From: Thermoplasmatota archaeon | GTDB lineage: Archaea; Thermoplasmatota; Penumbrarchaeia; Penumbrarchaeales; EX4484-36 | Reading direction: 5' to 3' | DNA: 41,465 bases | NCBI GenBank assembly: GCA_029932465.1 | Contig: JAOZQA010000012.1 | Coordinates: forward strand, 1 to 41,465 | Shown: positions 27,001 through 30,000 of the stretch, one piece after another | Layout of the letters: the number at the start of each line of letters is the position of its first letter | How positions within the stretch are numbered: the stretch's first letter is position 1 | Program-made: the position numbers

Positions 27001-30000
27001 TTGCGTGTAATCCTCCCCGGGGGGGTACCAGACCCGCCTGAAACCCGCAAGGAGGAATCCTTTGGCCATCTCCTCGGTGGTTGCTATTGCCACCTCCATC
27101 TCCACGTCATCCACCTCCCGTTATCATCATCTTCATAACGCTCTCTCGGGGCATCCCCCTGGCCAGGCCGAGAAGCACCAGTCTTAAGTTCCTCGCCTCA
27201 AGTCTTCTGAGCATAAGGTGCCTTAAGATGGTTCCCAGGCTCAGCGTGTACTGGATATATATCTCCTCCGCCACCTCCATCTCCAGCAGGTCAAGGAATC
27301 TCTCAAAGACGAAGGGGTCTGGGGAGAGGGCCCCCTCAAGAGAGGACCTCTTTATAAGGTCACCATAAGGAGTTGAAAGGACCTCCTCCTTGAAACTCCC
27401 CTCCCCAGCGAGGGCTATCTGTTCAAGTTTCCACGGCCTTATCCTCCCTAAAGTGCCCTCGGCCAATCCTCTCATCCTCTCCCCCTCACCCCTCAGTGCG
27501 AGAGCAAGGGCGGTTCTCATCCCGGCTCTGTCAGCCTTCCACTTCAGGAAGCGCTCAAGGGGCCTCCTGTAAAAGGGGTCAAAATCGCCCAAAGCCCCAC
27601 TGAACCTCTCTATGTAAAGCCTCTCAGCCATGTAGAAAAGCTCATCGTACTCCCCCCTTTCTAGGGGACCTTTGAGCCTCCTTATGAGCTCCTCCAGATC
27701 CCTCACATCCTCCCCGGTGTAGTACTCGTAGAAGGCTTCCAATGACTCCATCCTCTCAATCTTCTCTATGTCTGCCCTGCTCATCCTCCTGGTGGGGATA
27801 AGGGGCAGTCTTCTTACCACCCCTCTCTCTTTCTCCTTCAGATAGACCATGGCGGCAGCGATGTTCCTGTAGAGGAGCTCCTCCTCAATCAGGTCAAGGG
27901 CCCTCTTCAGGTTCTTGGGCCCCCTCGCCCTCATCTCCCTGAGCTTTGAGAGGTAGATCTCCTCGGCGGCCCTTCCTATTTCCACCGAATCCGCCCCCTC
28001 AAGGGAGGGTATGGTGTACCCCATGTTCTTCAGAACCTCCTGAGCACCCCTCACACCCCCCGCCTCAAGGAGGTTTGTAAGCTCCTGGCTCTGAAGGAGC
28101 ATGTTTCCCTCAGCTGCGTATCTGCCGTTCATGTAAGCTAGTGTCGTTATGTGATAGAGGTTTTTAATCGGTCTGTAGGACACCACTGCGGAGATCGTAA
28201 CGGCGGCCCCCACAAGGATCTGGGGGTTTTGTTGGGCCAGCTCAAGGATGTGGGATATATCCACTTCAGACAGCCTCCTCACCGAAAAGGGCTCTTGAAA
28301 CCCTCTCCCTGATCTCCTCATGCTTCCTCTTCAGCCTCCCCGCCAGAGTGTAATCCCCTATCATAGACCCGTCCGGCGCCACCATGATGACACCCCCTAT
28401 GAGGTCCGCACCCACATACTCCTCTATGAGGCTGGCGACCCGGGGGTTCAGCCCAGCAGTGTTTGAATTTATTAGGCTCTCCTTTACTCTCTCCCCAAAC
28501 CTCTTTTTAAGCTCCGGGAGGTCCTCCTCCCTCACGGGGAAGATGAGGGAATCCTTCCCAAGGAGCTCCTCGCCCCCCTCTATGACCTCAAGCAACCACT
28601 TGATGTATTCCTCCCCACTGAAACCCTTCAGACTCTCCTTGGTTCTTGTGATGACCTCCCATATGACCTCTTCCTTCGCTGCTGCCAGGGTCTCCTTTGC
28701 CTTTCTTCTGGCGGAAGAGAGGATCAGGTTGCGGAGCCTCTCACTCTCCTTCCTGTAGAATCTTTCTCGCTCCTCTCTGAAGGTGGCGAGCTCCTCCTCT
28801 GCCGCCCTTCTTATCCCCTCTATCCTCTCCTCCATATCATTGAGAATCTTCGCTCTCTCCTCTTCAGCCAGCTTCTGAAGCCGCTCAACAAGCCTCTCCG
28901 ACCCCATCTAGCCCACCCTCTTCACCGCAGACCAGAGTATATCATTATGAATATGGCTGCAATGAGGCCAAAGAGCGCGAGGGTCTCGGAGATGACCGTA
29001 TATATGAGACCAAAACCGAAGATCTCCTTGTTCCTGGACATGGCTGATATTGAGGCTGAGGCTATCATGCCCTGAGGAATGGCGGATACGGAGGAGAGTC
29101 CATAGGCTATTCCCACGGCAAGCCCGGCAAAGCCCACAGCCTGCTGGGACATCACTGATGTTTTCTCCAATGCCGGCAGAAGAAGGATAGTTATGACCAG
29201 GGCGTAGACCCCCTGTGTCATGGGAAGGCTCTCAAAGATCATCATTTTAGCCTTCAGATCCGGTTTCTCCGCGGCGGCACCTGATGCCGTTGAGCCCGCA
29301 ATTCCTATGCCCACGGAGGAGGCTATCCCAGCTATTCCAACGGCAATGCCTATACCCAAAAGGAGGAGATTTTTGTTCCTTTCAATATCCTTACTGCTAG
29401 CGTCCGGATGGAAGGGGTCGGTGTCGTCTTTGTACTCTTGAATGTTCTTCACTCCGTCCCCGTCGGGATCCTCCATGGAGTCGTCGCGGGAGGTGTTCAG
29501 TCCATACTTCTCCTCCCAGCTGTCGTCCATTCCGTCACCATCTCTATCCACCTGGGGAACGGGGGTGGCGGCGGCCCCGGGCACTAGCAGAAGCACTGCC
29601 AGTATGGTAGCCAGGGGCAGGACCACTCCGAAGATGTTCCCCAGAAGCTTTCTCCTTCCTTCATCACGCATACCTACTACACCTCCTTATAGATGAACTT
29701 CTTCTCTTTTACTTCAGTGTAAAGCCTCTCCCTCCCAAAGACCTTAAAAGGTCTCCCGCCGCTCTCATAGAACTTTCCCATGAACTCGGCATATTGCAAC
29801 CTAAGTGAGTGCACAATAGCTCCCAGAGTCTGCAAGCCCGTGTTTATGATGTGACCAAAGAATAGGAGAATCGCTGCCAACATTGCCAGAAGTGCCCCCC
29901 CTATTCCATCCTTGACAACTAACATCCCTGCAATAATGTTTATGGCTCCTGCCATTGCGGAGGTCGCAAGCCCCAGGGCAAGTATCCTTGCATATGAGAT

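Follow-up and report, generated by a model that had tools for sequence, protein, structure and literature searches.

Why should the c subunit of an ATP synthase, the unit of a ring usually viewed as a bare helix bundle, be made with an acidic domain at its N terminus, and does that domain stay on the working rotor? The question is raised by a single gene in the window, the whole stretch of 41,465 nucleotides analyzed here, which comes from an archaeon of the Thermoplasmatota. Its class has been named Ca. Penumbrarchaeia, described in sections of PMC12220078 as protein-degrading archaea of anoxic sediments, and has no cultured member. A literature survey that covered only a minority of subscription journals, and that looked both at this class and at c subunits carrying a signal peptide or an outer domain, turned up no description of such a build.

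The c gene and its operon

The gene lies within the following set of ATP synthase features.

28922..29671, minus strand: atpK/c gene, 249 aa, made up of a predicted signal peptide, a twin DxDxDG module, and a two-hairpin c core
29680..29687, minus strand: Shine-Dalgarno-like site (a sequence reading), GGAGG core, 8 nt upstream of the c ORF and overlapping the end of atpI
29677..31761, minus strand: atpI, stator subunit a
31758..32075, minus strand: atpH/G, with a weak family match
28266..28907, minus strand: atpE, peripheral stalk
27107..28321, minus strand: atpC (AC39/d)
26776..27114, minus strand: atpF
25010..26779, minus strand: atpA, catalytic subunit
34722..36137, plus strand: atpB, on the opposite strand to the operon and outside it

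The operon order is H-I-K-E-C-F-A and, with atpB separate at 34722 and atpD on contig C77, the subunit set is complete. PF00137 was found at one locus of the genome (G000), with two hairpin matches that both fall inside the 249-aa ORF; the ATP-synt_C score of this protein is 93.5 bits over two stretches, compared with a cut-off of 24. The initial annotation had called it the only c/K subunit of the genome, and a single PF00137 locus within a complete A-type operon bears this out. No partner gene for the outer module was found in the atp operon. A frameshift or assembly artefact as the source of the fusion was ruled out by the identical in-frame arrangement in 31 genomes.

A predicted one-site Na+ core

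28925..29371, minus strand: c core of four helices, predicted to hold a single Na+ site (T152, Q153, Y156, Q200, E229; Met151 where the first Glu would be)

All 42 aligned sequences have Met151 in helix 2 and Glu229 in helix 4, and the model contains four core helices, as expected from the earlier description of a two-hairpin V-type core with Met in helix 2 and Glu only in helix 4. Because Met151 stands at the position of the first Glu, one ion site per subunit is predicted. The AlphaFold2 model of the 249-aa protein has a mean pLDDT of 87.8 and finds its best Foldseek match in the Enterococcus hirae K ring (2BL2) at an rmsd of 1.6; the confident model with an ordered insert and the likeness to the K ring thus stand, although at these values rather than the 91.6 and 1.4 first given.

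Residues T152, Q153, Y156, Q200, and E229 align (E 1.7e-21) with the NtpK site, whose residues we take to be the ion ligands. The criteria for a Na+ rotor in section 2.3 of bioRxiv 10.64898/2026.10.01.756066 are a Glu in the second hairpin, a Gln in its first helix, and [STQ][STQ]xxY in the first hairpin, which are found here as E229, Q200, and T152-Q153-xx-Y156. Its sequence places the protein in the A-type, two-hairpin, one-site Na+ c family, and the rotor is predicted from its site residues to be Na+-coupled. Subunit a keeps the essential-Arg motif, and an alignment of 24 loci shows its outer loop to be equally long whether the relative has the module or only a tail. Nothing points to a repurposed motor or to a stator partner for the module.

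The genome also encodes a membrane pyrophosphatase and an Mbh-type cluster whose large subunit has both CxxC motifs; RnfD gave no match in this genome, which is 94.6% complete. Thermococcales pair Mbh with a Na+ synthase. Ions would pass through the one-site Na+ core, which is unchanged, and the Mbh-type hydrogenase probably provides the drive. According to part of PMC9171764, one-site Na+ enzymes can produce ATP at 90-150 mV.

The first helix

29567..29671, minus strand: predicted Sec signal peptide, residues 1-35, with a basic n-region, an h-region, Pro at -5, and A-x-A before Thr36

A net positive n-region is present in all 35 class c proteins that have a first helix, and 31 of the 35 show a small-x-small site past the h-region, whereas at the control position, where helix 2 ends, only 6 of 35 do; the pattern was of our own design, set after the sequences were seen and applied to related, non-independent sequences. 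Mean identity is 0.21 in the first helix, compared with 0.73-0.79 in the four core helices, and its length varies. The first helix is best read as a cleaved Sec signal peptide, which we regard as very probable from these sequence features. They speak against the extra retained membrane helix of the initial annotation. In the sister class, c subunits with two hairpins likewise begin with this signal, after which comes a tail of 5-20 residues.

Were the first helix left uncleaved, it would form a fifth membrane helix, perhaps inside the ring like TM1 of c'', and the module would become a closed outer loop. The long h-region (~22 residues) and the helix at residues 2-28 of the AlphaFold model (pLDDT 74-80) would suit this arrangement, as would the eukaryotic c'' TM1, which sits within the c-ring (part of PMC7414150). 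The weak signal peptidase match also favors it: signal peptidase I was not found with PF00717 and TIGR02228 at E<=0.001, a later search gave a weak candidate only (G000:C78, TIGR02228 E 6e-7, below the family cut-off), and matches are weak class-wide (21 of 37 genomes at E<=0.01, 1 of them above the cut-off). However, a helix packed in the ring should be conserved, and this one has, besides its low identity, variable length, and A-x-A-type site, a dN/dS of 0.43. Unconserved and signal-like, the first helix does not resemble the conserved, retained extra N-terminal helix that marks five-helix c''-type proteins. A fifth helix is accordingly improbable.

The acidic module

29411..29548, minus strand: acidic module, residues 42-87 (46 residues), TSP3_bac-like, net charge about -12
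29513..29548, minus strand: predicted Ca2+ loop 1, with D42, D44, D46, D50, and E53 at EF-loop positions 1, 3, 5, 9, and 12
29435..29470, minus strand: predicted Ca2+ loop 2, with D68, D70, D72, N76, and E79

Downstream of the signal peptide, two DxDxDGxx[DN]xxE motifs form the loops of the module. Both fit the 12-residue EF-loop spacing with ligands at positions 1, 3, 5, 7, 9, and 12, but the EF-hand helix-loop-helix is incomplete in the model, where each loop is followed by a short exit helix and the entering helix is absent. The ten side-chain ligand positions have a mean identity of 0.98, and the module is predicted to be folded (pLDDT 89-97 over the first 50 residues of the module model). 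Ca2+ binding is predicted from the motif.

Pooled dN/dS values are 0.075 for the module, 0.43 for the signal, and 0.04 for the core, as obtained from 9 non-overlapping pairs (of 14 pairs, drawn from 22 of the 31 module genomes) with partly saturated synonymous sites. The module is under purifying selection (dN/dS about 0.075). Net charge ranges from -12 to -17 across c modules, and the bare tails of relatives are likewise acidic.

Matches to known families are partial. PF18884 was matched by 14 of 30 module sequences at E<=1 (best E 4e-7) and PF03495 by 7 of 30; in the 249-aa protein itself PF18884 scores 13.4 bits, compared with a cut-off of 25, and one homolog (P0039) carries the PF18884 annotation. 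Foldseek of the module alone gave no match at E<=0.001, and a wide structure search through VIA returned only Staphylococcus aureus Bap (Z 2.8 and 2.0). Sequence matches in the PDB were weak EF-hands (best E 0.011). No solved structure clearly resembles the module, so its metal geometry is a prediction. A lanthanide-binding module had been considered from a lanmodulin match (E 0.04, Pro at loop position 2) and was dropped, the Pro being unconserved. The ESM Atlas returned unnamed clusters at 0.84-0.85 for the module, which we treat as leads only.

An acidic collar of this kind could concentrate Na+ by the outer half-channel and so raise the effective driving force. The charge per module, with perhaps ten modules per ring, the intact Na+ site, and the acidity of the bare tails agree with this idea, whereas at the salt content of seawater charge is screened over a few angstroms. 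Bound Ca2+ would also offset part of the charge, and the module springs from the inner-ring helix, distant from subunit a. We hold Na+ gathering to be very unlikely.

Predicted outer location and retention of the module

The module recurs in proteins at the cell surface, as the initial annotation had noted for their stalks. A phmmer search with residues 41-103 matched 22 further ORFs of this genome at E<=0.01 (best tblastn 1e-14), and in 16 of the 22 the last module ends 4-41 residues ahead of a predicted membrane helix, in most cases the anchor at the C terminus of a large surface protein. One example lies in the window.

37978..38136, minus strand: module copy ahead of the C-terminal anchor of a 1221-aa surface protein (37570-41235)

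Such a juxtamembrane module is thus common among the archaeon's own surface proteins, and the claim that the rotor displays it on the outer face is upheld as a reading of the sequence. Membrane-anchored HTH regulators of the class, predicted to be one-component, have the module as their only outer domain, and 21 of 30 c modules score best to these. The comparison is circular as a test for the donor and allows no conclusion, because the HTH modules had been chosen as top matches to the c alignment.

29489..29497, minus strand: N-glycosylation sequon N59-T60-S61, between the loops

An inter-loop N-x-S/T sequon occurs in 28 of 30 c modules (that of G008 escaped the search pattern), compared with 0 of 14 complete surface-protein modules of this genome. 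AglB is encoded at G000:C75 with its WWDxG motif, and 22 of 42 short tails of the sister class have a sequon as well. Sequon, conservation, and AglB together support the prediction that the c module is outer, retained, and probably glycosylated. Neither the conserved sequon nor the interchange with PKD domains and bare tails had been mentioned in the initial annotation.

Retention would fail if the module acted only in export or ring assembly and was then trimmed, leaving an ordinary working ring. Extracellular peptidases are among the proteins encoded by these archaea (PMC12220078, section 10), on the eukaryotic c-ring Ac45 and PRR have their luminal domains trimmed by furin (part of PMC7414150), and the linker at residues 88-100 is less conserved, with an identity of 0.44. 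However, no conserved cleavage motif was found in the linker of the class c proteins, and the copies ahead of surface-protein anchors presumably stay where they are. Given the near-invariance of the ligand positions, trimming appears unlikely.

Distribution of the module and exchange of the appendage

Among 37 class genomes searched, 36 have the c gene and 31 of these have the module, namely this archaeon, 24 of its 25 relatives within the order, and 6 of the 11 genomes from elsewhere in the class. The one same-order relative missing, G016, lacks a c gene in a genome that is 62% complete. The earlier count within the order is unchanged, whereas the further class genomes number six and not five. 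A signal-like helix and an acidic tail without module are found in G001, G003, G005, and G006, and G002 has a plain NtpK-like c protein; G031 and P0005 carry two modules per c protein. Database homologs come to 41, close to the ~40 given before, but extend over 233-280 aa, beyond the former upper length of 257 aa. No module was found on a c protein of more than 300 aa among 172 c-core proteins.

Repeat proteins dominated the profile search of 50% representatives, in which c fusions were surveyed down to rank 150. In L127, L141, L149, and L151, which have 4-6 hairpins, a PKD-like domain occupies the position of the module; these Thermoplasmatota include the cultured Aciduliprofundum boonei, whose Aboo_1266 is a PKD-type c. 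PKD is above the cut-off on the c protein P0143, is combined with c in 30 of the 98 rows listed, and is present on 12-hairpin single chains as well (P0233, PKD E 7e-5). It also sits on the two-hairpin c of G300, two genomes of the same genus carrying short tails instead.

A quick tree of 81 cores, with 16 near-identical sister-class rows, L225, and P0043 omitted, has starred branches that force at least 2 changes for PKD, and the Ca module may have had a single origin, which is compatible with this tree. Folded domains of unrelated folds have likely been gained at least 3 times, with between one and about ten copies in each ring. The slot that separates the signal peptide from helix 1 is permissive: tails, the module, and PKD have all been fixed in it. 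Because the appendage is exchangeable and occurs on 12-hairpin chains also, neither a fold nor a ring symmetry is required.

The repeated, independent gain of adhesin-type folds on a rotor could mean that the appendage passes rotation to the outside, for stirring, surface-layer remodeling, or motility. Against this, Na+ site, stator Arg motif, and the whole operon are intact in the only ATP synthase found, the operon lacks a partner gene, and if the appendage were tied to a fixed layer, the sole synthase of the cell would stall. Work on the outside is a far-fetched explanation.

Proposed role

The reading that we lean towards is a passive, co-rotating outer collar with a general structural role, which would fix helix 1 N-out and, in surroundings rich in proteases, cover the outer face of the ring. 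The N terminus would be exported by Sec and cut by signal peptidase I after about Ala35; Ca2+ of the medium would fold both loops, and AglB would glycosylate Asn59. The module would then turn with the ring as a collar, and the folded domain would set helix 1 N-out and shield the ring face and lipid plug from proteases and damage, which is the weakest step. A general structural role is favored because c subunits are found with a tail, with one module, with two, or with PKD. Against the collar, module-less relatives make do with a short tail, so that the module is unnecessary for topology.

Rough geometry, assuming a helix spacing of 9.5 A and a K10 ring after part of PMC3604715, gives about 4300 A2 as the area needed by ten modules, compared with about 2000 A2 for the lumen. 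As this exceeds the lumen area, the modules would make a splayed collar rather than a plug. A complex prediction with four mature copies and Ca2+ scored 0.01 and was not used as evidence. Also counting against the collar, conservation over several orders is stronger than a purely passive cover requires.

Alternatively, the module could be a regulatory Ca2+ or metal switch, braking or releasing the rotor through module-module or module-stator contacts. The near-invariant ligands and low dN/dS agree with a switch, the role of the same module as sole outer domain of HTH regulators hints at sensing, and ten modules of ~23 A, each on an arc of ~19 A, would be crowded by the same rough geometry. However, the Ca2+ level of seawater changes little and is likely saturating, the module may be doubled or swapped for a tail or PKD, and the outer loop of subunit a is equally long with and without it. 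The passive cover is preferred over a Ca2+ regulator because the appendage is exchangeable and the stator outer loop is unchanged with the module; a switch has only a slight chance of being right.

A bolder proposal is that Thermoplasmatota rotors have repeatedly been turned into carriers of exported, glycosylated surface domains and that, in this class, the ten or so Ca-loop modules are a functional lid. As a prokaryotic counterpart of Ac45, the lid would seal or stiffen the wide V-type ring and render the synthase responsive to outside Ca2+. As a whole we consider it doubtful.

A folded outer domain under selection in most of a class departs from the usual picture of the c-ring. Together with the unrelated PKD domains, gained at the same spot at least 2 more times, it points to an unrecognized need on the outside of wide Na+ rings, which may lie in topology, in covering the plug, or in protease defense; a prokaryotic parallel to Ac45 is possible too. 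The N terminus of c would also be a natural attachment site for probes on the rotor from the cell exterior. Because the PKD version is present in a cultured archaeon, the question is testable.

Comparison with known systems

The closest relative in structure is NtpK of the E. hirae Na+ V-type ATPase (PDB 2BL2, K10 ring), which shares the two hairpins, the one helix-4 Glu, and the Na+-ligand positions but has no signal peptide, no outer domain, and Gly at the position of Met151. One-site Na+ synthases likewise have one ion site per four helices and Na+ coupling, and ATP synthesis at low driving force has been demonstrated for E. callanderi (part of PMC9171764); unlike here, no exported folded domain of the c subunit is described in that part of PMC9171764.

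An N-terminal leader before helix 1 is shared with the K subunit of Thermus thermophilus, which is 99 aa as gene product and 73-74 aa in other PDB chains, where ~25 N-terminal residues are absent. Sulfolobus AtpP and Aquifex c are also made with a leader peptide. These leader-type subunits differ in having a single hairpin and few residues outside once the leader is gone.

The DxDxDG loops and 12-residue spacing of the module resemble those of bacterial TSP3 (PF18884), EF-hands, the Binary_toxB Ca-binding domain, and S. aureus Bap, the last as a weak match at residues 725-775 (Z 2.8). Unlike TSP3 and EF-hands, the module is below the Pfam cut-off here, lacks the entering helix, and is fused to a rotor subunit.

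A. boonei Aboo_1266 (ADD09074.1, 606 aa) has the same plan of signal peptide, sequon-bearing outer domain, and hairpins in an atp operon. The PKD-bearing multi-hairpin c proteins differ in having a beta-sandwich PKD-like fold in place of Ca loops and 4, 6, or 12 hairpins per chain; for those of the Thermoplasmatota, database records but no paper were found.

In its working, the module would most resemble Ac45 (ATP6AP1), whose glycosylated, folded luminal domain rotates with the eukaryotic V-ATPase c-ring (part of PMC7414150). Both would be glycosylated non-cytoplasmic domains that turn with the ring, glycosylation and co-rotation being predictions for the module, whereas Ac45 is a separate subunit, one per ring, with a 14-strand beta fold and a helix in the ring, and shares no homology with the domain described here.

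Gene order around the ATP synthase genes

Genes of the window that lie beside the atp genes include:
22649-24838, minus strand, PKD-repeat surface protein, directly downstream of atpA and including a run of N
32168-34645, plus strand, 825-aa coiled-coil protein with TPR at its C terminus, between atpH and atpB
The coiled-coil/TPR gene and atpB share a direction, pointing away from the remaining atp operon, and a similar gap with an inverted atpB is seen in relatives from the order. The atpD gene lies on a separate contig.

The acidic module and other genes of the genome

The acidic module of the c subunit type also occurs, in one or two copies, in proteins with a signal peptide, a membrane helix, and a double winged-helix domain, encoded at five loci:
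L233:723-1748
L234:715-1632
L235:589-1584
L236:1187-2101
L237:555-1658
These are predicted to be one-component regulators in which the module is the only outer domain; it is absent from the HTH homologues in the genome under study. Proteins in which the acidic repeat recurs in 16-21 degenerate copies are encoded there at C33:7025-13720 and C59:8647-12105.

Contig C43 holds a cluster for an Mbh-type membrane-bound [NiFe] hydrogenase, Mrp-like subunits included (L246:3073-11283), which is a likely source of the Na+ gradient; the hydrogenases listed in a figure legend of PMC12220078 include none of this type. On C75, a very long open frame contains AglB/STT3 followed by several carboxypeptidase-regulatory-like (Ig-type) repeats (L239:4077-8999).

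ATP synthase subunits in other archaea

Other Thermoplasmatota, among them A. boonei (Aboo_1266), have c subunits of two, four, or six hairpins fused behind a signal peptide and a PKD-like domain:
Loci: L127:1123-2436, L141:730-2037, L149:1129-2937, L151:247-2064, L169:2-685
Proteins: P0111, P0143, P0181, P0215, P0247-P0310
Alignment of subunit a (subunit I) revealed an extra hydrophobic insert behind the Arg helix at L212, L221, L223, and L224, of which the first three or others carry a PKD domain in every aligned case of that kind, and one is a four-hairpin locus lacking an outer domain. The subunit A frames of L221 (9532-12930, 1133 aa) and L224 (5821-8871, 1017 aa) far exceed the usual length and are probably intein-bearing.

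Longer c chains were also found. P0257 has ~300 residues ahead of six hairpins. The c subunits P0084 (12 hairpin matches) and P0235-P0244 span 970-1190 aa, some labeled Nanoarchaeota at source, and several carry a Thr/Asn-rich, sequon-rich N-terminal extension without an obvious signal peptide. P0233, P0234, P0237, and P0241 (1118-1186 aa) each combine twelve hairpins in a single chain with a signal peptide and a lone outer domain that is beta-rich or PKD-like. Such a chain may make up a whole ring bearing one cap.
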